Below, piece after piece: positions 19,131 to 40,850 of a DNA stretch of 64,000 nt. This stretch comes from Acidobacteriota bacterium. GTDB taxonomy: Bacteria; Acidobacteriota; Vicinamibacteria; Vicinamibacterales; CAVVIG01. The position numbers and the translations under genes are program-made. The notes under the pieces were generated by a model. It had not been told where the DNA came from. It did no database searches and saw only the letters and a list, made by a program, of their open reading frames with translations. Each line of letters opens with the position of its first letter. The first letter of the stretch is position 1. The DNA lies in contig JAOBWF010000119.1 of assembly GCA_025463215.1 (NCBI GenBank), positions 1,840 to 65,839 of the forward strand. The letters are read 5' to 3'.

Positions 19131-19161
19131 TGTTCTGATTCCTCATTCCTGCCTGCTCGTT

Positions 19162-20656: not shown

Positions 20657-20705
20657 GGCCCATCGCTGCGTGGAACGACGGCGGCCGAAGGCACCCGTAG
20701 GTGAC

Positions 20706-24500: not shown

Positions 24501-24955
24501 TTATCGCGCCCGTCTGAAGATGTCGCGCACCACCGCGTGCCAAAACGGCTGCCCGAAGGCGTACGGGGCGAGCAGCGCGGCGGCCGCGCCGCCAGCCTTC
24601 ACGGACTAGATCCCTTGCGGCGACCAATACACGTCCGCGAGTCGAAACCAGAGGGCGAACTCATCGAGCGTGAGGCCCAGCGCCACGCCGAACACGATGG
24701 CGATTCGCAGGTGCCACCCGGTCACCCTCGTGGTGAGCGCCGCGAAGCCTGTCGCGATCAACAGCAGGATGCCCCAGAAGAGATGGTGGACGTGGAGACC
24801 GCTTTCGTGACGAGATTCCGGAACGGCCCGTGCGGGAAGAGCTCGAAATGAATGATCGCCGTGAGCACTCGCAAGTTGGCGAACGTGCTCAGGAAAGCAA
24901 CGAGCGCGCGGGTCGCCACGCGTCGGCCGAGGCTCGGTCGACTGGTCCGTAACAA
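24501..24955 (-). pseudogene. Disrupted membrane-protein gene (frameshift plus in-frame stop)
   Basis: The minus-strand reading LVAFLSTFANLRVLTAIIHFELFPHGPFRNLVTKA continues only after a -1 shift as GLHVHHLFWGILLLIATGFAALTT...LTLDEFALWFRLADVYWSPQGI. A TAG follows, then more plausible coding sequence. Confidence 0.3.
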
Positions 24956-25083
24956 CAGCCCACCAAGCTATGCGACGGTGCTCGCGGCTGTCGGCGGTTG
25001 CGATCCGCGTGATAATGTCGCGACGTGGACCGTTGGCCAGCCGTGGGATACTGCGGGCCCATCCATGCAGAGAAAAGGATCCG

Positions 25084-25485
25084 ATGAGTGCTGAACAGAT
25101 CGCCCTGGCGACCCGCTATTCCGCCGCGTGGGGGGCCCACGACCCGGATGCGATCGTGGCCCTGCACACCGAGGATACCGTCTTCCACATGCACGGCATG
25201 GCCGAGCCGGTCATTGGCGCCGCAGCTACGCGCAGGGCCATCGCGGCGCTGTTTGTTCAATGGCCGGACATTCAGTTCCAGCGTAAGACGGCGTACTTTG
25301 GCGACGGGCATATCGTGACCGAATACGTCGTGTCCGGAACTGTGGACGGGGCGCCGTTCGCGTGCGACGGTGTCGACGTGTTCCAGCTTCGCGACGGCCG
25401 CCTCGCTCGCAAGGACACCTACCTCGACACAATCACGTATCAGCGCCAACTCGGGCTCGATCCGGCCGCGACGAACGCGACGTAA
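25084..25485 (+). CDS. SnoaL-like / NTF2-fold protein
   Basis: MSAEQIALATRYSAAWGAHDPDAIVALHTEDTVFHMHG... has the typical SnoaL-like polyketide-cyclase-fold N-terminus. 133 aa. Confidence 0.75.
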   Translation: MSAEQIALATRYSAAWGAHDPDAIVALHTEDTVFHMHGMAEPVIGAAATRRAIAALFVQWPDIQFQRKTAYFGDGHIVTEYVVSGTVDGAPFACDGVDVFQLRDGRLARKDTYLDTITYQRQLGLDPAATNAT

Positions 25486-25657
25486 GCCTCACGCGCACGG
25501 CCACGTGGCCGAACCTAGCGTTCGTTAGATAACACGCGCACGTCGCCGGCGTGGGCCCCGCGGCCGCGTCGTCACGACCCGCCGACCGGGCATACCTGGG
25601 CCAACGTGATGACATGGGCGAGGCGGTTGACGGACGCTGCTGTCATCTCGACGCGGG

Positions 25658-25771
25658 CGGTACACTTGTACGTGACACCGGGCGATTCGTTCATCATAAG
25701 AAGGGGAAGACTCGCAGACTCAGGCGCGAATTCGACGCGGAGGGATGGCCAGTGGTCGATGGCGGTGGTCT
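25658..25771 (+). repeat. Partial copy of tRNA-Ser(UGA): upstream flank plus nt 1-33 (left island boundary, att-like)
   Basis: ttcgacgcgGGAGGGATGGCC-AGTGGTCGATGGCGGTGGTCT matches 39021-39063, with one base missing. Patchy similarity extends further upstream (tacacttg..gtgacac, gggcgatt, tcaggcg). Identity ends immediately before the anticodon. Confidence 0.6.
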
Positions 25772-26055
25772 GGGGGACCGCTGCACCGAGACCCCATACC
25801 GTCGAGGCGCCCGGGTGTGCCGCAACGCCGTCGGTCGTCGCCACGGTCGCCGACGTGGGGCCACGTCGCGCGGGTGTGGGGCCCTGTCCCGCCGATCGCG
25901 AAGACGACGACCCGCCGGCGTACGCCCCGCACCGCCGCCTTCGACGCTTCGCCATCACATCGCCTGCGTGCATGCATCCAGATTCGACTGGACTCGTGCC
26001 GGACACAGAGCGGTCATGTGTCGGCGGGCATGGCGCTCGCGGTGCAGGAGTTCGC

Positions 26056-26220
26056 GTGACCCCACGGATCCAGATCGTCGGCCGAGTCCCAGTGGCGCCG
26101 AGTCGTCGCGTGAGCGCCGTCGCGGCACAACAGCACGTGAGCCTGAACACATTCCTCATCCACGCGCTCACGCAGGCGGTCGCCGCCTCGCTTAAGCCGC
26201 GCGAGAAGACGGGAGCCTAA
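26056..26220 (+). CDS. Ribbon-helix-helix (HicB/Arc-type) small DNA-binding protein, start uncertain
   Basis: C-terminal RVSAVAAQQHVSLNTFLIHALTQAV fits the RHH helix-1/helix-2 pattern seen in HicB-type antitoxins. Ends 3 bp before the integrase ATG. The upstream extent is unclear. Confidence 0.35.
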   Translation: MTPRIQIVGRVPVAPSRRVSAVAAQQHVSLNTFLIHALTQAVAASLKPREKTGA

Positions 26221-26223
26221 GCA

Positions 26224-27388
26224 ATGGGCACCGTTTATCGTCGCCAGGTGCGGTTCTGCACCGCCTGCGATCGGCGCCTCGATACGACCGCCGCGCGCAT
26301 TGCTTGCATGGCGGCGAGTCATGCGGTCGAACTCCGGGATCAGGGGCCTTGGTGGATCAAGTATCAGGTCCGGGGACGGCCCGTGTGCGTCAGCAGCGGC
26401 ACCGAGAGGAAAGAGGATGCGAAAAAGCTGCTTCGTCAGCGTGAGCACCTGGTGGACTCCGGCGCGCCGGTCACGGCGCACCAGAACCGCGTCACGTTCG
26501 AGGATGCGGCCGCGGATCTCGTCAACGATTACACGGTCAATAAGCGCCGCTCGCTGCGCACGGCCAACCTCCGGATCAGTAAGCACCTGACGCCCTACTT
26601 CGCGCACCGGCGGTTGATGACGATTACCGTCGTGGACGCGCGTGCCTACACCGGGCATCGTCTCCGCGAGGGCGCGTCCAATGCTTCGGTCAATCGCGAT
26701 CTCATGCTGCTCAAGCGCATGTGTACGCTGGCCATGCAGGCGGGGAAGTTGATGGTCCGGCCGTACATCCCGCTCCTGAAGGAGCACAACGTGCGGACGG
26801 GGTTCTTCGAGCCCCAGCAGTCGGCGAGCGTGCAACGCCACCTGCCCACGCACATGCGCGGAATCGCCGCATTCGCGTTCGTGACGGGCTGGCGCACGCC
26901 GAGCGAGATCCTCCCGCTCGAATGGCGGCAGGTCGATCTGAAACAGAACGAGGTCCGGCTCGACGTCGGCGCCACGAAGAACGGTGAGGGACGTGTGTTT
27001 CCGATCACGATCGAGCTGCGGCGGATCCTCGAATCGCAACAGGAGATCGCCAAGGTCGTGAAGCGCGAGCACGGGACGATCCCGCGCCATGTGTTCTGCT
27101 ATACGAAAGGCGCGAAAGCGGGGAACAGCGTCACGGAAGGCGGCTATAACAAGGCTTGGCGGAAGGCACGCGTTGCGGCTGGCTGCCCTGGACGGATCCC
27201 GCCACGACTTTCGTCGCACCGCGGTGCGCAATCTGGTGCGGGCCGGGGTGCCGGAGCGCGTCGCGATGCAGATGACCGGACACAAGACTCGAGCGGTGTT
27301 CGAGCGCTACAACATTGTCAGCCCTGGACATCTTCGCGACGCCGCGCGACGACTTGACACTTTCGCGTCGAGCACCGCCGCGATCTAG
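26224..27388 (+). pseudogene. Tyrosine recombinase / phage-type integrase, frameshifted before the catalytic HxxR
   Basis: The N-terminal 325 aa are read in the frame starting at 26224. The C-terminal catalytic block [39 protein letters not shown] is in another frame (ORF 27089..27388). Compared with the paralog at 30231-30240, one extra base is present near 27198-27204 (atcccgccacgac vs atctcgcacgac). Confidence 0.85.
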
Positions 27389-27439
27389 GGTTGCGCCCTC
27401 AATGTGGGGGCAACGCGTCGGTCCGCCTGACGACAGGAT

Positions 27440-27691
27440 CTACGGCTCGACCCGGAACGTCTTCAGCGTGCGCCAGTGCGGCGCCTCGCCGTGGCCTTGA
27501 TCCACCGCCGCGTTGATCGGACAGTAGCCGGTGGCGACGGTGGCTAGCATGGCGGTCGCACCGGCGAAACACAGGCCCTTTAGGAGAAACCCCGGCACCA
27601 GCACCGCCGCGACGCCAGCTGCGGCCGTCACCATGAGCCGCGGCGCCCGCTCTGAGGCGGCCACATTTGGCGCCCATCTCAGCGCCCACAC
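27440..27691 (-). CDS. DUF2892 (YgaP-like) small membrane protein
   Basis: NVAASERAPRLMVTAAAGVAAVL....ATVATGYCPINAAV matches the NVG..DR..R...G......G.CP.Y pattern of DUF2892. GTG starts are possible at 27691 or 27664. Confidence 0.5.
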   Translation of the reverse strand: MWALRWAPNVAASERAPRLMVTAAAGVAAVLVPGFLLKGLCFAGATAMLATVATGYCPINAAVDQGHGEAPHWRTLKTFRVEP

Positions 27692-27768
27692 GCGGCAAGG
27701 CCGACCACATACCAGATCGCGATTACGCTGAACGGCACCCCAAGCATCCACGCGGCGATGTAACGCAT
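27679..27768 (-). CDS. Possible 29-aa hydrophobic peptide
   Basis: ATG preceded by GGAGGT at 6 nt. Encodes MRYIAAWMLGVPFSVIAIWYVVGLAACGR (one TM helix). Its stop overlaps the DUF2892 start region. Confidence 0.25.
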   Translation of the reverse strand: MRYIAAWMLGVPFSVIAIWYVVGLAACGR

Positions 27769-27924
27769 GACGACCTCCGGCGTTATCGAGGAGCAATCTC
27801 AATACGATCTAACGGCCACCCCCTGGCGTACGTACCAGAGCGCAAGCAACAGGGAAGAAAGCCCTCACCTCGAATGCGTGCAACCCAGAGCCAGGATGCG
27901 ACGGACGGCACTAGCCACAAAACA

Positions 27925-28110
27925 TCGGGTCGGATTCCGCACGACTTGCGTCGAACCGCAGACGCATGGTTGTGCGAGTGGGTTTGCCTGGACAGGTCGC
28001 GATGCAGCTGTCCAGGGATAAAACGCGCGGTTTTGAACGCTACAACCGTGAGCGCGGGAGATCTTCGGAACGCTGCGCGACGGCTCAACACCTACGCGTC
28101 TGCCGTCTGA
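27925..28110 (+). pseudogene. Integrase C-terminal remnant (second copy)
   Basis: IPHDLRRTA, then (after a frame change) VRVGLPGQVAMQLSRDKTRGFERYN and VSAGDLRNAARRLNTYA. Same C-terminal architecture as the 26224 integrase, but broken. Confidence 0.55.
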
Positions 28111-28463
28111 ACTCCGACTGTAGAAAACGGCCTCTGTTAGCACACCGGCGTCCACATCGTCGATGGCTTGCACTCTGCGATCCGTTGGCGCGGCGTCTGC
28201 GACGCCTTCCAGGCGGACCCATCGGCCACTTCACCCGCGACGTGCCCGACGGCTACATCCAGACGCTCTCGTCAGGGACGAACCGGATTTCGAATCCTGA
28301 CAGTGCCGCTTGCGACGATCGCCTGCGGTTGGTCGTGGCCGCACCCATCTCGACCGTGGCACGATTCACGGCAATGGTCGAGTTTTGGGGACGGTCCATC
28401 CGTTTCTTGATGTCGTCTAACTCAGCACGATGTATTCTTCCTCACCGAAAAGGAGCGCTGCTG

Positions 28464-29819
28464 ATGAACCGTTGCCGTCTCGCTCTGTTCTTTCCGACCG
28501 TTGCGGTTCTTGTGTGGGCTGCCGCCTGCACGAAAGACAATCCGACGACGCCCACGGCCCCTTCGTGTTCCTTCAGCATCACACCGCTGGTGACGACCAC
28601 CTTCGCAGCGGAAGGCGGCACCGGCACGATCGCGGTCACCGCCGGTTCCGGTTGCGCATGGACGGCGACGAGCGGCGCGACCTTCGTGACGATCACACAG
28701 GGCGCCAGCGGGACCAGCAACGGTTCGGTCGCGTTCACGGTCGCCGCCAATGCCGGCGCCGATCGGACCGCGATCCTGACCATCGCGGGGTCAACGGTTT
28801 CCCTCACGCAGCGCGCGGCCACTTCCACGCCCACCGGTACGCTGTCCGCGCCGACCGCTAAGGCACCGGTCGGCGGCGTCGCCGTCGACCCGGGCCGGCC
28901 GACCCTGGTCGTGAACAATGCGGCGGCCACCGGCACCGTCGGCCCCGTCACCTATCGTTTCGAAATCTCCGACACCAGCTCGTTCCCGGCCGATCCGGTC
29001 AGGACCTTCACCGTGGACGGCGTCGCGCAAGGCAGCGGCACGACCGGTTGGGTCGTCAATCACGATCTCGGCGCGAACGTGCTCTGGTACTGGCACGCAC
29101 GCGCCACCACCGGAACGGTCACCACGGCGTACTCCGCCACCGATACCTTCAACACCGGCACGTCGTGCACCTTCGCGTTGTCACCGTCGAGCGCGGCCGT
29201 CGGCCTCTCCGCTGCCACGGGCACAATTACGGTGACGACGACCAGCGCGTGCTCGTGGACGGCGACCAGCAACGACGCATTCATCACGGTCACCACCGGC
29301 GCGTCCGGTGCCGGCACCGGAACGCTCTCGTACACCGTCGCGGCCAACAGCGGCGCAGCACGGACGGGGACGCTGACGATCGCTGGGCAGACGTTCACGG
29401 TCGCGCAAGCGGGCTCTAGCTCTAGCACGGGTATCGTGGCGGCGTTCCAGTTGTTCGATCCGGGTTCGCAACAGGGAGCGACCACCGAGTGCCGCATTCG
29501 AAGCGCGAGCGGTGCGCCGACGACCTGCACACTGCAATCTACGTCGTTCACGCTCGGTACCAATGCGGTCGTGTCCTATTCGTGGAACGTGCAGTACACC
29601 TACGACACGGTGAAGACCTTCACCGGTACGAGCCCGACGCTGGCGATCACCGACGTGTGCGGCACGCTGCCGAACACGATCGCGACGACGGACGGCGCGT
29701 CTCAGCCGCTGTCGGTGAGCCTCACGGTTACCGACAACCTGGGCGCGACCGCCACCGCGATATCCGGCACCGGATCGCAGGCCCCGCTGGTGATGCGTTT
29801 CTTCGTCTGCGGCTCATAG
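28464..29819 (+). CDS. Lipoprotein with BACON-like all-beta repeat domains
   Basis: AAAGGAG upstream of ATG 28464. Lipobox (VLVWAAAC). Two units of the pattern GGTGTIAVTAGSGCAWTATSGA.FVTIT.GASGTSNGSVAFTVAANAGADRTAILTIAG, which I recognise as BACON-type. Confidence 0.7.
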   Translation: MNRCRLALFFPTVAVLVWAAACTKDNPTTPTAPSCSFSITPLVTTTFAAEGGTGTIAVTAGSGCAWTATSGATFVTITQGASGTSNGSVAFTVAANAGADRTAILTIAGSTVSLTQRAATSTPTGTLSAPTAKAPVGGVAVDPGRPTLVVNNAAATGTVGPVTYRFEISDTSSFPADPVRTFTVDGVAQGSGTTGWVVNHDLGANVLWYWHARATTGTVTTAYSATDTFNTGTSCTFALSPSSAAVGLSAATGTITVTTTSACSWTATSNDAFITVTTGASGAGTGTLSYTVAANSGAARTGTLTIAGQTFTVAQAGSSSSTGIVAAFQLFDPGSQQGATTECRIRSASGAPTTCTLQSTSFTLGTNAVVSYSWNVQYTYDTVKTFTGTSPTLAITDVCGTLPNTIATTDGASQPLSVSLTVTDNLGATATAISGTGSQAPLVMRFFVCGS

Positions 29820-29850
29820 CGGGATGACACGCGTTCGTCGCCGACGGGCT

Positions 29851-30422
29851 GCGGAGTCATGCGGTCGAACTCCGGGATCAGGGGCCTTGGTGGATCAAAG
29901 TATCAGGTCGGGGGAGGGCCGTGTGCGTCAGCAGCGGCAGCGAGAAGATGGCGGTGACCGGCGCGCCCGAGTCGACCAGGTGCTCACGTAGACGCAGCAA
30001 CTTTTTCGCGGCCTCCTGGCGAGGGACGAGTGTTTCCGATCACCATCGAGCTGCGCCGGATCCTCAACGCCCAACAGGAAATCGCCAAGGACCTGAAGCG
30101 CGAGCACGGGACGATCTCCCGCCATGTGTTCTGCTACGCGAAGGGCGCGAAGGCGGGGCAGGGCGTCACGGAAGGCGGCTATAACAAGGCTTGGCGGAAG
30201 GCACGCGTTGCGGCTGGCTGCCCTGGACGGATCTCGCACGACTTTCGTCGCACCGCGGTGCGCAATCTGGTGCGGGCCGGGGTGCCGGAGCGCGTCGCGA
30301 TGCAGATGACCGGACACAAGACCCGTGCGGTATTCGAGCGCTACAACATCGTTAGCCCCGGGGATCTGCGTGATGCCGCGCGACGACTCGATACCTTCGC
30401 GGCCAAGGCCGCGGCGATCTGA
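29851..30422 (+). pseudogene. Integrase remnant (third copy) with internal deletion and a short inverted segment
   Basis: 29851-29939 is similar to 26310-26408. 29940-30016 is the reverse complement of the homolog of about 26409-26485. 30018-30422 is similar to 26984-27388 and keeps the catalytic C-terminus in frame (ORF 30030..30422). Confidence 0.8.
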
Positions 30423-30648
30423 CACCGCCTTGCAGTCCTCACTGGCCGCCGCGTTGCTCTGTTGGGCTAGCCGTTTCCGCCATCGCTCGGCTCAACACCG
30501 CGTCAGCCAAGGGCCCCAACCATTCAGTTATTTTCGGCCACGCTTCACTCGCGATCGAAACACGGGCGCACACAGAAACACAGAAAACTAACATTCCGCA
30601 GGTCGGTTGACCTCCGCATCGAACTTCGGCGAAAGTTCACAGGCTAGG

Positions 30649-31575
30649 ATGCGCGACGATTTCACCAAGCCGACCAAGCGAAAGATCGCCGCGCGGGCGG
30701 GCCATCGATGTTCAAGGTCCGAGTGCGGCGCCGCTACAAGCGGGCCCCAACTCGATCCTGAGGGAATTTTGAACGTTGGTGTGGCCGCACACATTCACGC
30801 TGCGTCAGAGGGTGGGCCTCGATACTTAGAGGCGATGACGCCTGAAGGGCGCGGCAGTGCGGAGAACGGTGTGTGGCTGTGTCAGACGTGCGCAAAACTG
30901 GTTGATAACGACGAGGCACGGTACCCGGCAGATCTGCTCAGAGGATGGAAACAGAAGGCAGAAGAGAGCGCCCTAACATCGATCGGAAAGACGAAGCGCG
31001 CCACGAAGGCGGCGCGGAAGGAGAGCGAGATCAGGCGAAATCTCAAGATCCGCGCCAAGCTCGAAAAGGCGATGCTGCGACCGATCGCCGAACGCCGCCA
31101 GTTACGAAGCCCTAGTCCGATGGACAAGTTTCGCAGTCGCAAGATCGTTGTTCGCTCTCTCGACGACACCAGATACCCGGAAATCGATGCAAAACCACCC
31201 AGCGGAATCAGTAGCTGGCTTGTGTTTGAGCCGTACGACTTCTACCACGGCGGTCTGAGCGTCATATTGTCGATCCGCCTGGTGGTCATAGGTCCTGAGC
31301 AGAATTGGGCTTACGTCGACTACCGGCTCGATGTTCCCGAGGGAACCCCCGGGATTGCCAAGGTCTGGATGCTTGGGGACATCCCGTGGCGAAACATTCG
31401 TGAGATTGACGCCGACGGTGATCGTCACTATCGCGGTCCGCATCTCTTCTGCGCTTACGGGGACAACGGCACTCCGTACGAACGAGTTATCGCTAGTGTG
31501 ATGGGTGAGTTCTACGATTCGCCTCTCGATCCGGCGAAACAGCACCCTGACGTCATGTCGCTCGAGGACCTTTGA
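30649..31575 (+). CDS. HNH-type nuclease-like N-terminal domain protein with unassigned C-terminal domain
   Basis: RKIAARAGHRCSRSECGAATSGP...VGVAAHIHAASEGGPRYLEAMTPEGRGSAENGVWLCQTCAKLVD matches the AHI.A.S.GGPRY...N.I.LC..C...ID family pattern. The region is visibly lower in GC. ATG 30649 was chosen over TTG 30607. Confidence 0.6.
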   Translation: MRDDFTKPTKRKIAARAGHRCSRSECGAATSGPQLDPEGILNVGVAAHIHAASEGGPRYLEAMTPEGRGSAENGVWLCQTCAKLVDNDEARYPADLLRGWKQKAEESALTSIGKTKRATKAARKESEIRRNLKIRAKLEKAMLRPIAERRQLRSPSPMDKFRSRKIVVRSLDDTRYPEIDAKPPSGISSWLVFEPYDFYHGGLSVILSIRLVVIGPEQNWAYVDYRLDVPEGTPGIAKVWMLGDIPWRNIREIDADGDRHYRGPHLFCAYGDNGTPYERVIASVMGEFYDSPLDPAKQHPDVMSLEDL

Positions 31576-32404
31576 CGTGGCCAGACAAACCGGTCCGTGG
31601 CCGCGAGCGGCATGAGTCTTCGGACCCCGCGAGAATCCGACACGGGGGCCGCCCCGTCGACGACCCAAAAGCCCCGTGACTGACGGACGCGCCCGGATCC
31701 GTTTGGGCGGTCGGGTCCGCGACGTGGAACCGCTGTTGTGGAGCGAGAAGGGCGTCCTCGCGAAAGCGAAGTGGGGTGTTGAAGGTGGTGCGAGCAGGCC
31801 GCGCGCCAGAAAGAACGCGAGCGCGGGGAAAAATTAGGGACGCCGATCACTTACTGGCCCGTCACCATCGCTTTGCGACCAGCGGCGCGGTGCTTCAAGT
31901 CGGCATTGCGCTCGGCGCGGTGGCGGCGTTGACGCCGCAACGTCTCGTCTGGTTCGGATCGGGGATTCTCGGTATCGCCGGCGTCGGTGCGCGATCATCG
32001 CGCGCGCCATCGTGCTAACTAGCCGGGTAAGACGCATCGGCGTGTCATTGCCGATGCGTTCGCGTCCGCCTCTTGTCAAATGAGGCCTCCTTCATCTATA
32101 CGAGGATCACCCCTGACGGCGCGACGATTCGTACCACAATCGGTCAGCCTTCACGATCAGCACGGCACGTCCCGGAACGGGCGGTTCCCCCCGTGGGTTC
32201 AGGCGCTAACAGACGCCACTTTCTTACGAGCCGAGCAGTGGATGACACGGAAGACCATGGCCAGCATAGTCGGCTCGGCGCGTGTGGCTAAGGCCGCGTT
32301 GTGCGCTGTGAGGTTTGAATAGGAGAAGGGCGAAAATATCAGCGCTCGCAGCAGCGCGACAACGTGTCGTGGCAGGGCGCCAGCGCGTGCCGAACGAGAC
32401 TCGG

Positions 32405-33151
32405 TTAGACGGTCTCGCGACGTCGGCGATACGCGGCGGCCGCGCCGCCGAGACCGACGAGCATCAGCGTCGCCGGCTCCGGCACGGGTACTCCTGTCAT
32501 GTCCGCGGGGCTGTGCATGATCAGCAGGTCGGAGCAGCCAAAGGGTCCGCATAGATTCGCTGTCAACGTCGTGGAAACTTCGTTGAACAGCCCGATCTGG
32601 TTCGCGCCGCTGGTGCCGTTGTACGACACCGAGCGCGGGCCGGGCGACGGACTGCCCGGCAGCGGGTCGCCGTAAACTTGCGTCGCCGCACCCAGACCGT
32701 TGAGCGTTCCGTTCAGCGCAAGGTCGATAATGTCGCCGAACGACACGCCGCCAACGCTGTACCCGTCGGAATACATCCAGATCGAGCCGTTATTGATCGC
32801 GAGGACGTCGCTGACGCCGGTGTACTGACTCGCGATCGGGTTGTAGGCAGCGTCGAGCAGAAAAATGTACGCGGTGTCCCAGTGCGGCGAGTCGAACGAC
32901 GGTACGAATACAGGATCTCCGGTCACGGCATCGAAGCCGTCCTGCACAGTGCCGACGAACAGCTGGTAATTCAGGTTTTCGCTGTAGTGGCTGATGCTTC
33001 CGCCGTGACCGTCGCCTTCGCCGGCATCACACGTCGTCACGAGCGTGTTGATGTCGGTCGTGCAGCCGATGGCGAAGGGACTCGCGTGTGCAGTCGACGC
33101 GAACGTCGTGACGCAGACAGCGGCCAGGATGGGAGCAATGAACTTCGTCAT
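32405..33151 (-). CDS. PEP-CTERM sorting-domain protein
   Basis: Signal peptide MTKFIAPILAAVCVTTFASTAHA. C-terminal VPVPEPATLMLVGLGGAAAAYRRRR. Confidence 0.75.
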   Translation of the reverse strand: MTKFIAPILAAVCVTTFASTAHASPFAIGCTTDINTLVTTCDAGEGDGHGGSISHYSENLNYQLFVGTVQDGFDAVTGDPVFVPSFDSPHWDTAYIFLLDAAYNPIASQYTGVSDVLAINNGSIWMYSDGYSVGGVSFGDIIDLALNGTLNGLGAATQVYGDPLPGSPSPGPRSVSYNGTSGANQIGLFNEVSTTLTANLCGPFGCSDLLIMHSPADMTGVPVPEPATLMLVGLGGAAAAYRRRRETV

Positions 33152-33617
33152 AAGAACGGGTTAGAGCAAGTTCGTGACCGGACTGCCGCGCTGGCTAAGG
33201 TGTGCGCTCAATCACCGCAACCATTGGTGCCATAGGGGTTGTGCCACCTGTCCTAAATGGTCGTAGACTGCGGCGTCGCGAGTCGGAGAGTCGGTTCCGA
33301 CAAAAGATCGCAGGCACGCAGACTTTAGGGAGTAAGGGCGATGACTCCTGCGATCGGAGATCGCACGGTCGCGTTTGAACGACAAGCGGATAAAAGTCTG
33401 CTCTTGAAGGTTTCGAATCGCTCCCCTGTCTCTTCAAGTCTTGTACTGTCATTAGGATCTGTGGGTATCAAATATGCGAGTCACTTCTTGCCTTTCTAGG
33501 CCCCGCTAAACGATCCTCTGCGCTTCGACTTTCGCACTTCAACTCAGATCGGGATGAGGGAACGCTCGCTGGGAGCATTCCACTAGGCGTCGGTGTCGCT
33601 TCCCTAAGGATTCTGCA

Positions 33618-36600
33618 ATGAACCGATACTTGCCGGTCTGTGTTATGGCGTCGTTCGTTTTTTTGATGGCTGCGGCTGCGGCCGCGGACCAACTGACCGT
33701 CACTCTCAACACCGACACTTGGGGAGGCGTTCCCGGCAGGCAAGGAGAAGTCGGCGATCTTCGATGGACCCTGCTGGTCGCAGGGGAGGGCGACACGATT
33801 GTGTTCGACTGCGGCTCCCCCTGCCACGTCATTCTGAGGGCCCCGTTGGCCCCGATTACGCACGACGTGACGATTGACGGCGGCCCCCTCGGAACGATCA
33901 TCGACGGCGACAATGTCCATCGTGTGTTCTTCGTCGATACGGGCCACGTCGTTCTGCGCAACCTCCGAATTCAGAATGGCCGCGCAAAAGGCGGCGATGG
34001 CGGCCCCGGGCACCGTGGGAGCGGTGGAGGCGGCGGCCTCGGTGCCGGCGGCGGCCTCTTCGTCAACCAGACCGCCGCTTCGGCGACCCTCATCGACGTT
34101 TCCTTCGTGAATTGCAGCGCAGTGGGCGGCGCCGGCGGTGGTTCCATCGCTGGCAACGGGGGCGGCGGAGGGGGCGGCCTCCTATTCCCTGGTGGAGCAG
34201 GTGTGGGTGGAGCCGGTGGCGGCGGCGGCGGAATTTACGGGGCGGGCGCAGACAGCGGTCCGGGCCTCGATGCGGGGAATGGTGGCGACGGCGGTGGCGC
34301 CGGGGGCGCCCCGGGTATGGTGTGGTGCGTGTTGCAGTGTCCGATTGGCATTCCGGGCAATGCCGGATGGGCCTTTACGACGAACGCACCGGCGACGACT
34401 AGCGCGCTGTGGATTAATAACTCTCTCAATGCAATCAACGGGAGTATGAGTCAAACCATCTTCGTGTTTTCGGCTGGGAACGGCGGCTTCGGCGGCGGCG
34501 GCGGTGGCGGCGCCCCTTCAAATTTTTTCCATGATGGCCCAGCGGGAAAAGGCGGCTTTGGTGGCGGCGGTGGCGGCGGAGCTGGCGCCTTAGTGCGCGA
34601 ATTTGGAGGAGACGGCGGACCGGGCGGCGGCGGTGGTGCAGGTGGTGTGCTCGATTCTCAGAATAGCGCTGGCGAACCGGGGCTCGGCGGACTACTCGCG
34701 AATGGGGTGTACGGTGGCCGAGGCGACTTCTTGAACAACGAATCGACCGGCGGCGGCGGTGCCGCGGCTGGGCCGGCCGTGTTTGTCAATCAAGGCAGTT
34801 TGACGACGAGCAATAGTGCCTCTACGGGGAGCATCGCGCGACCTGGAGGGGGCGGTGCGACCGCTGATGCGACTCCCGTCTTCAATTACGGTGGAATGGT
34901 CAACGGCTCGACAGAGGTCGGGCCGATCGCCAGTGCCCTCTCCCTCTCAATCTCCATGCTGTCGATTCAACAATCGTTTAGTGCACCGGACATCCCGTTA
35001 GGCGGGATCACCACTTTAACCATCGCGATCACCAATCCAAATTCGTCCGAGGTGCTCTCTGACGTCTCGTTCGTCGATTATCTTCCCGCCGGCCTTACGG
35101 TGGCCACACCGGACGGGTTGACAGCGGCATGTGACGGGTTTCTTTTCCAACGAAGTTATGGCGCGTTCATCGCGGCAGGTAATGTGGTGTCCACTTCCGG
35201 AGCGCAACTGTTTCCAGGCGCGTCGTGCTTCTACTCGGTGAATGTGATCGGCACGGCCCTTGGCCGCCAGACCAACAGCATTCGTGTTGGTTTGAGGTAC
35301 GCCACTGGGGCGCCGTCGCTCGCGGCGGTCACGGTCGGCGCGCAGACGATCACATTCAACGCGGTACCCCCCATCACCTTCGATGCCGGTCCGGCGCTGC
35401 TGAGCGCAGCGGCATCATCCAATCTCCCGGTCACCTTTACGTCGATAACACCTTCGATCTGTGCCCCGGTCGGGAATACCGTCACGCTGCTGGCCGTGGG
35501 CACGTGTTCGATCACTGCGAACCAGAGTGGCGGCACGACCTACGCCGCCGCTGCGACCGTGACGCAAAGCTTCGGCATCACTGCCGGAACGCAAACGATT
35601 GCATTCGGTGCATTGCCCAATGCCGGATTCGGGTCCGGCCCGATTACGCTCACGGCAATCGCATCGTCCAACCTGCCCGTGAGCTTCTTCTCGATAACCC
35701 CAATTGTCTGCGCTGCCGGCGGAAACATCGTCACGTTGCTGAGCGTCGGCGCATGTTCGATCACCGCGACTCGCGCGGGCACCGCCAACTACGCAGCCGC
35801 AGCGAACGTGACGCAGAGTTTCCTCATCAACGCCGGAGCGCAGACGATCGCGTTCGCGCCGCTAAGTACCGCAGCGTTCGGCGCTGGGCCCGTCGCGCTG
35901 GTTGCCACCGCGTCGTCCAATCTAACCGTGACGTTCGTGTCGACTACACCCGCGATCTGTGGTGTCATCGGCGATACCGTTTCACTTGTGAATGTCGGCA
36001 CCTGTTCGATCACCGCGAGCCAAGGGGGTAGCGCGAGCTACCTGGCCGCGCAAAGCGTGGCTGGGAATCTCACGGTGAAAAGATTTGAGTACTCCCTTGT
36101 TACGACCGTGGCCGGCACGCAGGGCCAAGAAGGCACAACCGACGGGACCGCCAGCACGGCGCGGTTCTCGCTTCCCAAGGGCATCGCGGCTGACGCTGGT
36201 GGCTCCCTCTATGTCGCAGATACGTTCAACCACACGGTTCGCAAGATCACGGTTGGCGGAGTTGTGTCCACCGTTGCGGGCCTAGGCGGTGTGAGTGGTG
36301 AGGCGGACGGCACCGGTGACGCCGCGCGGTTTCTCTATCCGGCCGGTGTGGCGGTGGACCCTTCCAATAATGTCTATGTTGCCGACACCAGCAACCACAC
36401 GATCCGCAAGATCACAAGCGCTGGTGTTGTGACGACGCTCGCAGGCACCGCGTCGACGCGTGGCGCGTCAGATGGAACGGGAAGTGGCGCGCAATTCTTC
36501 TTCCCGACCGGGATCGGGCTGGACACTTCAGGGAATCTCTACGTGGGCGATCAGAACAACAACAAAGTTCGGAAGATCACCCCAGCCGGTGTCGTCTCGA

Positions 36601-38570
36601 CGTTGGCGGGTGCGGACAATCCACAGACCGCCGGCGAAGTTGTTTGGGCGGACGGCGCCGGTGGCGAGGCGCGGTTCAGGCGGCCGACGGGCGTGGCAGT
36701 GGATCTCGCTGGCACCGTGTACGTTGCCGACGAACTCAATCACGTCATCCGCAAAGTCACTAGCGCTGGCTCGGTGACCACGTTCGCCGGTGCCCATGGC
36801 AGCAGCGGCTCGGAGGACGGCGTTGGAAGTGCTGCGCGGTTCTTCCGTCCCAATGGTGTAGCCGTGGACAGCGTCGGAACGGTCTACGTCGCGGATACAA
36901 ACAACTCGACGATTCGGAAAATCACGAGCGATGGAGTGGTCACGACGCTCGCAGGAGAGGCGGGAGAGGGAGGTTTCGCGGATGGAAGCCCGCCTGCCGC
37001 ACGGTTCAGCCTTCCGACCGCGCTTGCGCTGGACGGCCTGGGCAACCTGTACGTGGCGGACACCGGCAATCAGACGATTCGCCGCATCGTGCTCGTGCCG
37101 ACCGCCCCGGCCGGCGCTGGGCCGGCCGCATCGCTCACCCCCGCGAGTCTGACGTTTGCGAGCCAGGCCCTGAATGCCGCTAGCGTCACTCAACGCATCA
37201 CGATCACGAATAGCGGCGCCGCTCCGCTGGTATTCGGTTCCATCTCAACGACGGCTGAGTTCAACCAAACCAACACGTGCGCCACACTGCCCGTCGGTGC
37301 GACCTGCACAGTGGATGTCGCATTTCGGCCAACGGCAGGCCAACTCCGAACCGGCGCATTGGTGCTTGCCACCAACGACCCTCACAGTCCAACGACGATT
37401 CCGATGAGCGGGCGCGGAGGGTTTCCAGCGTTCTCGTTCAGCCCCTCGCCACTGCTGTTTGCAAATCAACCGATCGGCACGACGAGCGGTAGTCTGCGGA
37501 TCGTGTTGACCAACAGCGGCCAAGACACGCTCAGCATCGGTTCCGTCGCGACGACCGGTCCGTTTTCACCCGTAACCGGCTGTCCGACGCTGAATCCCGC
37601 TGCAGGCTGCAATCTCGATGTGACCTTCACGCCAACGACGGCCGGCATTCAATCGGGATTGTTGATCGTCACGGACACCGGCGGTTCGCCGCACCAAGTG
37701 ACACTCACAGGATCCGGATTTGCAATCGCACCCGTCTCGACGCCGCCAGGCTCGAGCGTGCCCGTCCAGAGCGCGGGAGCGGCGATCACCTTCACAACCG
37801 TAACCGAAGGCGGTGTTACGACCGTAACGGCCCTCGGCGCTCCGACACAACTAAATCTCAGTGTCCCGGGAGGATTCGCAATCACTGGGAGCAGCTTGGC
37901 GTTCGAGATCCATACCAGCGCCGTCTTCGCGGGAAATGTCCAAGTCTGCTTCGATGCGCATGCGCTATCAAACGATGACTTCGCAGTCGCCGTGGTGCTT
38001 CATGGTGAAGGCGGCGCCCTTGTGCCGTACCCGACCACGCGATATTCGGTGACGCGGATGCTGTGTGCCGTCGTGCCGTCGCTAAGCCCGTTCGTGATCG
38101 GCACCATCGTCGACTCACGTCTCAGCCTTCCGTTCTCGAATCAACCGCCGGTCTGCTCAACAGCAACGGGCACGACGTTGCCGATGTACCCGATGGACCA
38201 CGGCCTCCGATTCGTATCTATCGCACACGTGACCGATCTCGACGGCGATCCGCTCGCCACCAGAATTATCGCGATCTGCCAAGACGAGCTCACGAACTTT
38301 GAAAACATGGCCGCTTATGCGATCGACGGGGCGGGTCTCGGCACCGCAACCGCCGCGATTCGCGCAGAGATCAGCGGTACCCGCGCAACCCCGAGCAACG
38401 GTCGCGTGTATCACATCTTCTTCAACGGTGACGATGGCAGGGGCGGGATGTGCTCCGGCGAAATAAAGATCGGGGTGCCGACATCGCCGACCGGCACAGC
38501 GATCGACGGCGGTGCCATGTACGACTCGACGAAGTCTAGCGGCGCGTGCAGGGTGCCAGGAGGACTTTAG
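33618..38570 (+). CDS. Giant secreted multidomain protein (Gly-rich beta-helix-like, Ig-like repeats, NHL propeller, choice-of-anchor-D-like domains)
   Basis: 1650 aa with a signal peptide. GGxGGxGG runs with FVN motifs. Three 81-aa repeats (Q TI.F..L....FG.GP..L.A.ASSNLPV.F.S.TP..C...GN.VTLL.VG.CSITA). Six NHL-like blades (G.A.D..GN.YVAD..N..IRKIT). Two L.F..Q..G..S......TNSG...L.I.S....G.F......C.......C...V.F.P domains. The last 330 aa or so are unassigned. Confidence 0.85.
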   Translation: MNRYLPVCVMASFVFLMAAAAAADQLTVTLNTDTWGGVPGRQGEVGDLRWTLLVAGEGDTIVFDCGSPCHVILRAPLAPITHDVTIDGGPLGTIIDGDNVHRVFFVDTGHVVLRNLRIQNGRAKGGDGGPGHRGSGGGGGLGAGGGLFVNQTAASATLIDVSFVNCSAVGGAGGGSIAGNGGGGGGGLLFPGGAGVGGAGGGGGGIYGAGADSGPGLDAGNGGDGGGAGGAPGMVWCVLQCPIGIPGNAGWAFTTNAPATTSALWINNSLNAINGSMSQTIFVFSAGNGGFGGGGGGGAPSNFFHDGPAGKGGFGGGGGGGAGALVREFGGDGGPGGGGGAGGVLDSQNSAGEPGLGGLLANGVYGGRGDFLNNESTGGGGAAAGPAVFVNQGSLTTSNSASTGSIARPGGGGATADATPVFNYGGMVNGSTEVGPIASALSLSISMLSIQQSFSAPDIPLGGITTLTIAITNPNSSEVLSDVSFVDYLPAGLTVATPDGLTAACDGFLFQRSYGAFIAAGNVVSTSGAQLFPGASCFYSVNVIGTALGRQTNSIRVGLRYATGAPSLAAVTVGAQTITFNAVPPITFDAGPALLSAAASSNLPVTFTSITPSICAPVGNTVTLLAVGTCSITANQSGGTTYAAAATVTQSFGITAGTQTIAFGALPNAGFGSGPITLTAIASSNLPVSFFSITPIVCAAGGNIVTLLSVGACSITATRAGTANYAAAANVTQSFLINAGAQTIAFAPLSTAAFGAGPVALVATASSNLTVTFVSTTPAICGVIGDTVSLVNVGTCSITASQGGSASYLAAQSVAGNLTVKRFEYSLVTTVAGTQGQEGTTDGTASTARFSLPKGIAADAGGSLYVADTFNHTVRKITVGGVVSTVAGLGGVSGEADGTGDAARFLYPAGVAVDPSNNVYVADTSNHTIRKITSAGVVTTLAGTASTRGASDGTGSGAQFFFPTGIGLDTSGNLYVGDQNNNKVRKITPAGVVSTLAGADNPQTAGEVVWADGAGGEARFRRPTGVAVDLAGTVYVADELNHVIRKVTSAGSVTTFAGAHGSSGSEDGVGSAARFFRPNGVAVDSVGTVYVADTNNSTIRKITSDGVVTTLAGEAGEGGFADGSPPAARFSLPTALALDGLGNLYVADTGNQTIRRIVLVPTAPAGAGPAASLTPASLTFASQALNAASVTQRITITNSGAAPLVFGSISTTAEFNQTNTCATLPVGATCTVDVAFRPTAGQLRTGALVLATNDPHSPTTIPMSGRGGFPAFSFSPSPLLFANQPIGTTSGSLRIVLTNSGQDTLSIGSVATTGPFSPVTGCPTLNPAAGCNLDVTFTPTTAGIQSGLLIVTDTGGSPHQVTLTGSGFAIAPVSTPPGSSVPVQSAGAAITFTTVTEGGVTTVTALGAPTQLNLSVPGGFAITGSSLAFEIHTSAVFAGNVQVCFDAHALSNDDFAVAVVLHGEGGALVPYPTTRYSVTRMLCAVVPSLSPFVIGTIVDSRLSLPFSNQPPVCSTATGTTLPMYPMDHGLRFVSIAHVTDLDGDPLATRIIAICQDELTNFENMAAYAIDGAGLGTATAAIRAEISGTRATPSNGRVYHIFFNGDDGRGGMCSGEIKIGVPTSPTGTAIDGGAMYDSTKSSGACRVPGGL
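35337..36080 (+). repeat. Three tandem 243-bp coding repeats (Ig-like domains) inside the giant gene
   Basis: Protein repeats begin GAQTITFNAVPP, GTQTIAFGALPN and GAQTIAFAPLST. Antisense ORFs in the track (35231..35536, 35540..35788, 35789..36013) mirror the periodicity. Confidence 0.7.
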
Positions 38571-38613
38571 CGGGGGGCGGGGAAACGACCGTCAGTCGGT
38601 GCGTCAGATATAT

Positions 38614-38735
38614 ATTGATCGACTCGGTCGTAATTCGAAGCATCTAATCACGCTCCTCGAAGATCTTCAGGCGCTGGGCGTGCGTTCGTGTCGCTGGCCG
38701 AGGGCATCGACGCCATGACGCCAGCCGGGCTGACC
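38614..38735 (+). pseudogene. Serine recombinase (resolvase/invertase) fragment
   Basis: IDRLGRNSKHLITLLEDLQALGVR, then (after a 1-nt gap) VSLAEGIDAMTPAG. This is the conserved central block of the resolvase catalytic domain. The N-terminus and the HTH are absent. Confidence 0.5.
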
Positions 38736-38951
38736 GCTAGCTGCAGCCAAGCGTCGCCCGCCAGTTCGGGCGCCTGATGCGTCCGTCATAGCCACGGTCG
38801 TCACGCGTTCCGGTCGGGCGCTTGCCGGCCATTGGCGGTTCGAGTGCCCGATGAACTCCTCCCGTCGCCTCAGCCTATGCGAGCGCCAAGACGACGGACC
38901 TGCGAGACGCTACAATCCGTTGTGGCGTGTGGTCCCGCGTTGTCCCGTTCG

Positions 38952-39063
38952 TTACACTTGCGGTGACACATGCCGATCGGCGGCGGCGATCGTCCACGAG
39001 TCGGGCGATTTCAGGCGAGATTTCGACGCGGAGGGATGGCCGAGTGGTCGATGGCGGTGGTCT
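38952..39063 (+). repeat. Right copy of the island-bounding repeat (tRNA-Ser upstream flank plus nt 1-34)
   Basis: Partner of 25658-25771. See that feature. Confidence 0.6.
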
Positions 39064-39119
39064 TGAAAACCACTGAACCGGAAACGGTTCCGGGGGTTCG
39101 AATCCCTCTCCCTCCGCCA
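39030..39119 (+). tRNA. tRNA-Ser (anticodon UGA)
   Basis: GGAGGGA acceptor pairs with TCCCTCC. Anticodon stem GTGGT/ACCAC with loop CTTGAAA. Long variable arm, GGTTCGAATCC T-loop, and encoded CCA. Confidence 0.9.
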
Positions 39120-39233
39120 AATGATTGGCAACAGCGTTGATTTAGCAGCGAGAGTGGACGCTGGTTAACGCTGACCATCTCGTGATTGTCCGTGTCGCTT
39201 TACGTGGTAGCAGGCCCGACAATTGCGCGAGCG

Positions 39234-39419
39234 TCAGGACGTCGATACCTTGAGCTGATCGCGCGGTTCGCGGCCGCTCATTCCAGTGTTGTAAACGGGC
39301 GTGTCCGGTTCGAATTCCTGACCGCGCGAGAGCGCGCCGACCCTGACCGGATCGAAACCGGCGTCGCGCACGAGGCCGGCGACGACGTCCATCGCGGCGC
39401 TGTCGGGGCCAGCTCGGCT
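39234..39419 (-). pseudogene. C-terminal fragment of an NADP oxidoreductase (COG2085 / F420-type dinucleotide-binding enzyme)
   Basis: AGPDSAAMDVVAGLVRDAGFDPVRVGALSRGQEFEPDTPVYN resembles the C-terminal GDD..A...V..L....GF.PVD.G.L block. The frame is closed by a stop just upstream, so only about 60 codons remain. Confidence 0.35.
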
Positions 39420-39530
39420 TCAAGGCGCGAAGGTCGCCTATTGACGCGCCGCGCGTGGAACCCCGAGCCGGTGAACTGGCGTCTAAGCATCTGCTCGTTC
39501 GTCAATCCGCATTTCGCAAGGAGCCGACCC

Positions 39531-40103
39531 ATGGCATTTCGACGCGCACTCTCCACGCTGTCGCTCGTCGCGCTCGTCTCCGTCGCCGGCGCACCGGCGC
39601 GCGCTCAGGACGTCATCAGCAAGGACGACGCCGCGCTGGTGAAGGCCTCGTTCCTGAACGATCTCGAAAACATGCGTGTCAAGTTCGTCGGGCTTGCGGA
39701 AGCCTTTCCGCAGGACAAATACACATGGCGGCCAATGGAGGGCGTCCGGTCGGTGTCCGAAGTGTTCATGCTCGCCGCGATGGAAGGCTACAGCTTCATT
39801 CCGACGTCGTTCGGCGCCAAGGCGGCCGCCCTCGGCACGCGCGAAGAGATGGGCACGCTGCGCACGCTGACCGACAAAGCGCAGGTGATCGATCACCTCA
39901 ATAAGGGATTCGCCCACGCCAAGGCGGAACTGACGGCGCTCGACCCGGCCACGCTGACCGCAAAGCGCAAGATCGTCGTTTCGCCGAACCCGGTCGCGGT
40001 CACCGACATCGCGCTCGGCATCGGCGGCGACCTGCACGAGCACCTCGGCCAGATGATCGCGTACGCGCGCGTGAACCACATCGTACCGCCGTGGAGTAAG
40101 TAG
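39531..40103 (+). CDS. DinB-family protein with signal peptide
   Basis: AAGGAG upstream of ATG 39531. Signal peptide MAFRRALSTLSLVALVSVAGAPARA. The C-terminal GGDLHEHLGQMIAYARV motif is typical of the DinB superfamily four-helix bundle. Confidence 0.8.
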   Translation: MAFRRALSTLSLVALVSVAGAPARAQDVISKDDAALVKASFLNDLENMRVKFVGLAEAFPQDKYTWRPMEGVRSVSEVFMLAAMEGYSFIPTSFGAKAAALGTREEMGTLRTLTDKAQVIDHLNKGFAHAKAELTALDPATLTAKRKIVVSPNPVAVTDIALGIGGDLHEHLGQMIAYARVNHIVPPWSK

Positions 40104-40129
40104 GAGCCGCACGGCGCGGCGGGGGCCGA

Positions 40130-40516
40130 TTACGCCGCGGTGATGTCGGTGTGTGTGAAATCTTCGCCGACGAACAGCAGCGAGTCGTTCGCGGTCGCCG
40201 CCGCCGCGTAGGCGAGACAGTCGCCGAAGTTCAGCGCCGCTTTGTGACGGCCACGGCCGAACCTGAGAAACGCGTCGGTCGCCGCGTGCCATTCCCGTTC
40301 GCCGAACGGCACGACGGTGACCCCCAATTCCTGCACCACCGCCCGAACCTCGCCGGCCGAGCCGGCCTTTCGGCGGCTAGCGAACACGATGCTGGTCTCG
40401 ACCAGCGTCGGTGCCCCGACGCGCACGCCGGGCGCCGACAGAATTCTGTCGATCAGATCGAGATGCCCGTGTTCGCCGAACATGATGGCGATCAGCGCCG
40501 ACGAATCGAGCGTCAT
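40130..40516 (-). CDS. vapC: Type II toxin VapC (PIN-domain ribonuclease)
   Basis: MTLDSSALIAI... (Asp near the N-terminus), ...FGDCLAYAAA..., ...LLFVGEDFTHTD. This is the classical PIN acidic quartet pattern. ATGA overlap with the upstream antitoxin. Confidence 0.85.
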   Translation of the reverse strand: MTLDSSALIAIMFGEHGHLDLIDRILSAPGVRVGAPTLVETSIVFASRRKAGSAGEVRAVVQELGVTVVPFGEREWHAATDAFLRFGRGRHKAALNFGDCLAYAAAATANDSLLFVGEDFTHTDITAA

Positions 40517-40782: not shown

Positions 40783-40850
40783 GATTACACCATGGTATAT
40801 CACAAAGGGTGTAACGGTGTAAACATCGCGTTCCGGCAGACGGCCGGCGG

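Follow-up and report, generated by a model that had tools for sequence, protein, structure and literature searches.

How does the 5′ half of a tRNA gene, together with the flank that precedes it, come to lie some 13 kb upstream of the intact gene? The question is raised by a 64,000-nucleotide stretch of DNA from an Acidobacteriota bacterium of the order Vicinamibacterales (GenBank assembly GCA_025463215.1, contig JAOBWF010000119.1, forward-strand positions 1,840 to 65,839), here called the window, in which an orphan 5′ half and an intact tRNA-Ser(UGA) gene enclose integrase remnants and cargo genes. The answer that we favor, and consider quite probable, is that a stack of integrative elements of reversed polarity has built up at tRNA-Ser(UGA), having entered by site-specific recombination in the anticodon arm. 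Comparisons were made within the source assembly of the window (G000; 5.8 Mb) and with Vicinamibacterales relatives and soil metagenomes (genomes numbered from G001, loci numbered with an L).

The duplication itself, with a break at tRNA nucleotide (nt) 34, is confirmed. Over nt 1 to 34, the left copy agrees with the right at 33 of 34 positions, the single difference being the absence of G13; over nt 35 to 51 the agreement falls to 11/17 (GGGGGACCGCTGCACCG versus TGAAAACCACTGAACCG), and over nt 52 to 90 there is no similarity (14/53). In the 100 nt upstream, 53 of 101 positions are identical, mostly within two colinear blocks, one of 17/19 immediately 5′ of the tRNA and the other an 18- to 19-nt motif (GTACACTTGTACGTGACAC versus TTACACTTGCGGTGACAC, at −79 and −78). 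The flank similarity by itself is marginal in local alignment, where 6 of 2,000 shuffles reached it. A profile hidden Markov model (HMM) of the upstream module plus the 5′ half, built from 15 copies with the window's two included, matches 25641-25777 over profile positions 13-149 (E 1e-26). A 20-nt core occurs twice exactly in the window, against 0.01 occurrences expected, and the motif pattern is found at just these two sites in the whole 5.8-Mb assembly. Thus, the sequence-only reading had correctly described a 5′ part of the tRNA with one base missing, a patchily similar upstream flank, and a collapse of similarity before the anticodon.

Both copies lie on the plus strand of the same contig; the fragment starts at nt 1, and the start-to-start distance is 13,292 bp. 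The Rfam tRNA model scores the right copy only (57.8 bits), neither ARAGORN nor Rfam finds a tRNA at 25.7 kb, and no Rfam family matches the motif or the orphan. The gene at 39030-39119 is the single copy of tRNA-Ser(UGA) in the assembly. A 3′ fragment of this tRNA, the mark of a canonical island, was found neither in the window nor in the rest of the genome.

Orphans of the same kind recur. With the right tRNA copy as the query against 40 relatives, orphan 5′ copies comprising the flank and tRNA nt 1 to about 45 were recovered in eight (G002, G004, G009, G010, G011, G012, G014, and G017), and five more orphan-bearing contigs came from metagenomes. When the ten orphans of the eight relatives were aligned, identity to the tRNA ran to about nt 32 to 42 and then gave way abruptly; the clearest stop right after the anticodon loop (GGTGGTCTTGAAAA...), and several are identical at 34/34 positions over nt 1 to 34. 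The sequences past the break form conserved groups across genomes, with a homology that lasts for 140 to 200 nt only. In G011, two orphans and the intact gene form an array, and no cargo was found to be common to the arrays of different genomes. A break that recurs at the anticodon arm indicates site-specific recombination and rules out a decayed paralog, an alternative that is weighed below.

Where the tRNA gene stood before these events can be read from serS, the gene for seryl-tRNA synthetase. Combining serS positions with tRNA-Ser(UGA) positions genome by genome, we found the two genes 30 to 250 nt apart in 12 genomes (G016, of the same family, and G025 to G028, G030, G033 to G035, and G038 to G040), so the site is uninterrupted there and the insertions are sporadic. 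The spacing is 1 to 2.3 kb in G031, G032, and G037. Elsewhere the genes share a strand at much greater distances: 13.4 kb in G029, 18.7 kb in G021, 29 kb in G011, 31.5 kb in the window's genome, 85 kb in G018, 94 kb in G013, and 146 kb in G023. On this synteny, adjacency of serS to tRNA-Ser(UGA) is ancestral across the order. The G011 orphans sit within its serS-tRNA gap, and in G014 the orphan shares a strand with serS and follows it at 15.6 kb. One of the junction types was also sought in metagenomes, which led to a contig (L101; JGI25382J43887_10008138) whose seryl-tRNA synthetase is 84% identical in amino acids to that of the window. There, 40 nt separate serS from an orphan of nt 1 to 42; a DarT/macro-domain pair comes next, and the contig ends in an integrase stub. 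This order of genes may be read as a snapshot of a first insertion.

Composition and synteny agree with this anchor. Between about 12 kb and 39 kb, tetranucleotide composition ranks in the 94th percentile or higher; directly past the tRNA, it is typical of the genome. Synteny with relatives is kept on the 3′ side of the tRNA only (a DinB ortholog in G008 and the 42.6- to 44.9-kb segment in G002 and G010), the island genes are not at the corresponding loci of relatives, and 22.1 to 25.7 kb has no counterpart in the genus. Taken together, the serS anchor, the one-sided synteny, and the composition place the inserted DNA, about 31.5 kb, 5′ of the tRNA; the 13.3 kb between the two copies is its innermost part. 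The sequence-only reading had the island on the correct side, with the orphan as a 5′ fragment carrying its promoter-side flank, a placement that serS synteny and the recurrent orphans support. Its predicted empty site, with a SnoaL-like gene followed by tRNA-Ser and a DinB-like gene, did not hold: the ancestral neighbor is serS, and the SnoaL/beta-lactamase region is nonconserved and compositionally atypical. When 20.6 to 25.7 kb was used to look for such a site in the genus, only orthologs of the open reading frame (ORF) at 20634-22076 were found, on contigs unrelated to tRNA-Ser.

Two further observations concern this linkage. In the closest relative, G008 (L029, contig C499), the DinB ortholog does not adjoin tRNA-Ser(UGA) but follows it at a distance of 7.6 kb, which suggests an extra insertion on the 3′ side of the tRNA. 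At eight loci of another taxon (L087, L092, L096, L097, L099, L102, L105, and L106; seryl-tRNA synthetases about 50 to 60% identical), serS lies 1.1 to 2 kb upstream of a tRNA-Ser(UGA) with an identical 5′ half, an ACCGC anticodon-stem arm, and a different variable arm. The linkage of serS to tRNA-Ser therefore reaches well beyond the order.

The region upstream of the live gene also has the look of an import. We call the upstream module of the element attachment site the P arm and the element arm that adjoins the integrase P′. Homology to G008 (87% over 305 nt) ends at 38888. The native flanks next to serS (G016, G025, and L101) carry neither the motif nor the conserved GAATTCAGGC...ATTTCGACGCG blocks, and a profile of the flank from the genus matches the displaced tRNAs of G007, G009, G010, G014, G018, and G019, with a weak match in G023, and none of the serS-adjacent tRNAs. 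An extended form of the motif, CGTCCCG-N5-GTCCCGATCG-TTACAC-N4-GGTGACACA, is almost confined genome-wide to these regions and always lies on the tRNA strand; each tRNA copy has one at about −98 to −60, and each orphan is followed by one after 45 to 470 nt. Since serS-adjacent tRNAs lack the module and most displaced tRNAs have it, the module most likely arrived with the elements. As the sequence-only reading had proposed, both the 5′ half and the upstream region of the live tRNA were most likely supplied by an element, with nt 1 to 34 derived from the element and the remainder from the chromosome. The right P arm is the presumed promoter region of the live tRNA, and because tRNA-Ser(UGA) is single copy, the supplied module would have to drive its expression. 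The left copy carries a module of the element type as well and is thus probably what remains of an earlier element rather than the original chromosomal half.

The motif, about 50 nt in all, consists of two direct-repeat pairs with a period of about 11 to 12 nt, GTCCCG-N5-GTCCCG and then TTACAC-N5/6-GTGACAC; it lies at 38932-38970 and 25641-25680 in the window, and there are several copies in L025, L030, and L031. It may serve as an arm-type integrase site, as an operator, or as an upstream promoter element. A role as a general promoter or regulatory site was rejected, given that the motif occurs essentially just at these loci. Neither flank contains a sigma-70 consensus.

What lies between the two copies is a decayed composite and not one clean element. 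int1 starts at an ATG 453 nt right of the junction and is readable from there to its C terminus apart from a +1 frameshift (an extra C) near 27203, immediately 5′ of the HxxR motif; read through, it matches PF00589 over positions 19-168 of 172 (E 5e-18) and the PHROG 1 integrases (E 3e-45). In int2 the first 30 codons are lost, 505 bp are deleted internally, and a segment of 65 bp is inverted; the stub that precedes it is recognizable over 60 amino acids at 48% identity (tblastn). None of the three tyrosine-integrase copies is thus intact, no attachment-site remnants were found between the three integrase units, and no convincing arm-type repeats are common to the window's P′ and P arms. With all three integrases broken and the orphan damaged, the island is probably fixed in the genome. 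The sequence-only reading of a 13.3-kb island therefore stands as to the spacing of the copies; it fails as to a single clean element, the interval being the innermost part of about 31.5 kb. The HicB-like ORF that abuts int1 matches Pfam HicB at E 0.037, below the cutoff, and the HNH-like cargo protein has no Pfam match. A profile HMM search of 7554-25640 found no further P-arm or 5′-half relics.

Table 1. Features of the serS-tRNA-Ser(UGA) region, in window coordinates
Feature	Position	Strand	Basis
serS (seryl-tRNA synthetase), ancestral upstream neighbor of tRNA-Ser(UGA)	6270-7553	+	SerRS similarity; synteny
Older variable/inserted DNA: metallo-beta-lactamase-like, Hcp-like, and PEP-CTERM proteins, TPR lipoprotein, beta-lactamase, SnoaL	7554-25640		
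Left P-arm module, upstream flank of the orphan; direct-repeat motif at 25660-25678	25641-25738	+	Profile HMM; alignment
Orphan 5′ half of tRNA-Ser(UGA), nt 1-34 minus G13; putative left side of attL	25739-25771	+	Alignment
P′ element arm next to the integrase; begins GGGGGACCGCTGCAC, ends in a weak HicB-like small ORF (stop 26220)	25772-26223	+	
int1, tyrosine integrase pseudogene	26224-27388	+	PF00589; PHROG 1
Integrase C-terminal stub (third copy)	27928-28101	+	tblastn; blastn to G017 integrase remnants
BACON-repeat protein, cargo; true start probably farther downstream	27966-29819	+	PF13004, E 2e-9
int2, second integrase copy	29854-30422	+	About 90% identical to int1
HNH-type nuclease-like protein, cargo	30607-31575	+	PHROG matches, E 1e-23; phrog_740 HNH endonuclease, 2e-8
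PEP-CTERM protein, cargo	32405-33151	-	PF07589, E 8e-8
1,650-aa NHL-repeat/Ig-like secreted protein, cargo	33618-38570	+	PF01436, E 1e-40; other families too
Right P-arm module, putatively from the newest element; motif 38952-38969, −10-like box near −27, ATTTCGACGCG block	38888-39029	+	Homology break; profile
Intact tRNA-Ser(UGA)	39030-39119	+	ARAGORN; Rfam tRNA
Native right flank: DinB-family gene (+), vapBC pair (-)	39186-40899		

The sequence that follows the orphan leads to a family of integrases. The P′ core (the GGGGGACCGCTGCAC region) is conserved in soil metagenomes upstream of intact pairs of HicB-like and integrase genes, which marks it as element DNA and not the product of decay; the break point at nt 34 is therefore a genuine junction. 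At two such loci (L108 and L109), about 450 nt upstream of the integrase, there is the motif, then a truncated stretch resembling the P arm and 5′ half, then the core; the L109 core, GGTGGTCTGGGGGACCGCTGCAC, is identical to window 25764-25786; in L108 it takes the variant form GGTCTGGGGAACCAC. Soil metagenomes contain more than 100 intact homologs of about 385 amino acids (62 to 89% identity), and in the contigs that were fetched a small HicB-like gene lies just upstream of the integrase in every context except L110. We surveyed 118 genomes of the bacterial family and found int1 homologs in 51. Most are placed canonically with respect to a tRNA gene (Cys, Phe, Pro, Gly, Lys, or Leu); several lie upstream of and co-directional with a tRNA gene, namely Ser(GCU), Leu(CAA), Lys(UUU), or Ser(UGA). 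In a tree, int1 is sister (100/99) to an integrase of G102 that lies 957 nt upstream of tRNA-Ser(UGA), co-directionally, and the pair falls inside a mostly tRNA-Cys clade. Upstream of the G102 integrase no 5′ orphan was found, only a weak 3′-like piece downstream, and there was none within the available sequence at the integrase-then-tRNA loci of tRNA-Leu(CAA) and tRNA-Lys(UUU). Remnants of the same integrase family do lie right of the orphan, co-directionally, in G017 and L101.

The core has a curious composition. Written GGTGGTC-TGGGGGA-CCGC (25764-25786; L109:9497-9519), it joins the anticodon stem of tRNA-Ser(UGA) to a loop identical to that of tRNA-Pro(GGG) in this genome (CTGGGGG). As a possible origin of the TGGGGGA loop, tRNA-Pro(GGG) agrees in the loop but not in the stems.

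From these pieces, we imagine the following course of events. The interval 25772-39063 would be the innermost layer of stacked integrative elements in tRNA-Ser(UGA). The attachment site of the element would consist of a promoter-bearing P arm plus tRNA nt 1 to about 34 to 42, not the usual 3′ part, and on integration the element would come to separate the resident 5′ half from the chromosomal 3′ half. The tRNA body would gain the element's 5′ half and promoter, and the previous 5′ half with its flank would be left upstream as the orphan. Repeated insertions of this kind would have shifted the tRNA 31.5 kb from serS. The last recognizable junction would be at tRNA nt 34, with the P arm and 5′ half of an older element to its left (25641-25771) and, from 25772 on, the integrase-proximal arm of an element with HicB-like and tyrosine-integrase genes to its right; the attP-type join expected from the model is the right P arm and 5′ half followed by GGGGGACCGC. 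We infer that the int1-type family catalyzed the event, and the order of the insertions is likewise our reconstruction.

Several points weigh against a stack of this kind. The source assembly is a metagenome-assembled genome (MAG) with 7% contamination. An empty allele of the island itself was found neither in a DNA search of the genus nor in metagenomes, where a scan for exact matches to the left junction gave none. The displaced tRNAs of G013, G021, and G029 lack the P-arm module and have other flanks instead. The anticodon-loop positions of the orphan read TGGGGGA, against TTGAAAA in the live tRNA; if the loop were the overlap, attL and attR should agree there, and since they differ, strand exchange must have fallen within nt 1 to 34 or the history of the site would be more complex. 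The integrases of the window are all dead, so the activity and specificity ascribed to them are putative. The serS-tRNA gaps of eight relatives contain 0 PF00589 integrases, and most stacked segments are therefore integrase-less, which leaves their mobilization unexplained. Finally, the sites at L109 to L112 could mean that 5′-half-like sequence travels with the integrase module as an attP relic.

The empty gaps raise an alternative in which integrases play little or no part: a portable module of P arm and 5′ half would be captured, integron-like, by a recombinase encoded elsewhere, making the locus an integrase-independent or trans-mobilized cassette platform and the integrases of the window bystanders, or one of several drivers. 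It would also account for P′-arm homology between genomes that ends after 140 to 200 nt, just past the second motif copy, with unrelated cargo beyond, and for additional motif copies inside the arrays, always on the tRNA strand. Such integrase remnants as exist (in the window, G017, and L101) are nevertheless of one family and co-directional right of the orphan, intact members of that family retain the same core upstream of the HicB-integrase pair, and no alternative recombinase was identified. Loss of the integrase gene from fixed islands is common. As to integrons proper, the relatives' gaps contain no tyrosine integrase of any type (IntI was not searched for specifically), and the motif is a direct repeat, not an imperfect palindrome like attC. 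We regard such a platform as unlikely. Slightly less so, though still doubtful, is a wider view in which the 5′ side of serine tRNA genes in Vicinamibacterales would be a platform for gene accretion, with a portable restoration cassette mobilized in trans by the HicB-like/integrase family, orphans serving as harmless landing pads, and the tRNA promoter replaced family-wide. If this were true, the cassette would comprise a promoter and tRNA nt 1 to 34 or 42 along with the direct-repeat motif of 50 nt, mostly integrase-less segments would be stacked between serS and the tRNA, and mobile-element DNA would have replaced the promoter of an essential single-copy tRNA across a bacterial family.

A different objection accepts the integrase and disputes the boundaries. 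The left copy might be the element's own attP-derived relic, moving with the HicB-integrase pair, so that the two copies would not bound one integration; the site would then read intact nt 1 to 34 directly followed by TGGGGGACCGC. All five loci L108 to L112 have the motif, a truncated 5′-half-like stretch, and the core 300 to 450 nt upstream of the HicB-integrase pair, and in four of them (L109 to L112) mobile-type genes lie farther upstream. These abut the site on the same strand in L109 (an HTH_17 gene and a large unannotated protein) and in L111 and L112 (primase-type genes); in L110 the genes are primase-type too, with a gene on the reverse strand in between. All of L109 to L112 have a truncated 5′ half, with the same truncation in L109 and L110, and L108, like the window, lacks G13. 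Such a picture would be compatible with a relic moving with the integrase, and equally with tandem arrays of one element family, in which each element would begin where the right end of its predecessor (primase block, P arm, and 5′ half) stops. Being unable to restore a tRNA, the truncated copies are poor candidates for a working attP, whereas the window has an almost complete 5′ half and, at the far end, an entire P arm with its 5′ half, as a pair of attL and attR needs. We find this explanation very improbable. Barely credible is the alternative offered by the sequence-only reading, that the left copy is a decayed tandem tRNA-Ser paralog, or with it a local duplication or rearrangement in which no site-specific recombination took part. 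The patchy upstream similarity and the 11/17 matches past nt 34 speak for it. Decay does not spare one half, however, and here similarity falls from 33/34 to none within a few bases; the same break is seen in at least 15 independent copies from many genomes, the bases past nt 34 are conserved element sequence, and no tRNA is predicted there.

Our preferred explanation, the reversed-polarity stack, makes the arrangement a new member of an established minority class of tRNA islands. In Islander (PMC4383910), an upstream 5′ fragment is among the valid configurations and accounts for 159 islands, against 3,760 with a 3′ fragment (3,919 in total). The arrangement is thus uncommon, as the sequence-only reading had held, and less unusual than it implied. 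PMC6563490 cites Zhao and Williams 2002 (J Bacteriol 184:859) for bacterial integration at the 5′ part of tRNA genes; PMC8371274 reviews archaeal pTN3-like integrases (Cossu 2017), for which attB is the tRNA 5′ half. In both, the recombinant tRNA is described as expressed from element sequence. The window resembles the known 5′-fragment islands in the direct orientation of the upstream fragment, the integrases inside, a crossover in the anticodon arm, and an element that would supply the promoter and 5′ part. It differs in its composite interval, where every integrase is a pseudogene or a stub, in the apparent reuse of the site, which leaves serS and the tRNA 31.5 kb apart (and up to 146 kb in relatives), and in that the supplied module is a conserved unit with a 50-nt motif, common to a bacterial family.

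Other systems share single traits. With pTN3, the locus has in common an attB in the tRNA 5′ half and a recombinant tRNA that would be expressed from element-supplied sequence; in pTN3- and SSV-type systems, however, the integrase gene contains attP and is split on integration, whereas int1 lies past the junction, is unsplit and not fused to a tRNA half, and the host is bacterial. A canonical island of the same integrase family (L079, at tRNA-Cys(GCA) of a Vicinamibacterales MAG) has an integrase of 46 to 49% identity, with int1 in the same clade, and a crossover in the anticodon arm (its 3′ fragment starts at nt 31), and the two tRNAs have similar cores, GGTCTnnnAAAACC. Islands of the L079 type leave a 3′ fragment downstream and keep the native promoter, which is the opposite polarity to the one here. 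Accretion arrays at reused attachment sites, cited in PMC6563490 and called "tandems" in Islander, likewise show several layers, internal attachment-site remnants, and loss of integrase genes; here, the accretion would be on the 5′ side, and each layer would bring a new promoter to a single-copy and probably essential tRNA.

Islands of reversed polarity make up about 4% of those in Islander, and pipelines that expect a 3′ fragment beside the integrase can miss them. To what was known of the class, this locus adds the ancestral, order-wide adjacency of serS and tRNA-Ser(UGA) as a comparative anchor, evidence that in many members of one acidobacterial family a single-copy tRNA works from an upstream region of mobile-element DNA, and a candidate integrase family, with its conserved HicB-like partner and core, for targeting of the 5′ side. 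For annotation, about 31 kb upstream of the tRNA, and not 13 kb, should be treated as accessory DNA, which includes the NHL, BACON, PEP-CTERM, and Hcp-like genes.

Some orphans elsewhere have peculiarities of their own. In L101, whose cargo is a DarTG-like pair, the element DNA right after the native orphan (1753-2000; also in L090) begins GCCATCGGCCATCCCTCC, an inverted repeat of tRNA nt 1 to 14 and 21 to 26; the orphan could form a long hairpin, possibly a terminator or stabilizer. At L032 (G009, contig C224, about 2082-2155, minus strand), an orphan of nt 1 to 42 is joined directly to a 3′ acceptor end, CCTCTCCCTCCGCCA. This is an internally deleted tRNA, perhaps a join of 5′-type and 3′-type attachment-site remnants.

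Other tRNA genes of the window, and the right flank of tRNA-Ser(UGA), deserve mention. At 61850-62398, a C-terminal integrase remnant (about 40 to 83% identity to int1 in pieces) ends 40 nt upstream of tRNA-Ser(GCU) (62438-62531), co-directionally, and in G069 and G046 full-length relatives precede the same tRNA by 79 nt. This may be a further site of reversed polarity; no 5′ orphan was found for it. A 95-nt tRNA-Ala(GGC) called by ARAGORN at 44365-44459 is probably a false positive, and a 67-nt look-alike is present on contig C346. The vapBC pair noticed earlier beyond the tRNA is real (PIN domain at 40130-40603 and an Rv0623-like antitoxin at 40513-40899, both on the minus strand), and a truncated oxidoreductase gene claimed at 39234-39419 has no Pfam support.

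Reversed polarity is seen a second time in the same assembly, at tRNA-Ser(GGA). The orphan, nt 1 to 41 of that tRNA at 100% identity, lies at 11210-11250 on the minus strand of contig C222 (L085); it breaks right after the anticodon loop, its upstream flank is partly similar, and the genes beside it are metabolic (SDR, F420 oxidoreductase, aldo-keto reductase, and AraC). The intact tRNA-Ser(GGA) is on a separate contig (C110:1961-2050, minus strand; L086), with a canonical integrase at its 3′ side (L086:1079-1945). Canonical 3′ orphans are found in this genome as well, on contigs C380, C128, C216, and C55: tRNA-Glu(UUC) nt 33 to 76, tRNA-Arg(UCU) nt 33 to 77 twice, and tRNA-Thr(CGU) nt 28 to 76. 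Islands of normal and of reversed polarity thus coexist in one genome.

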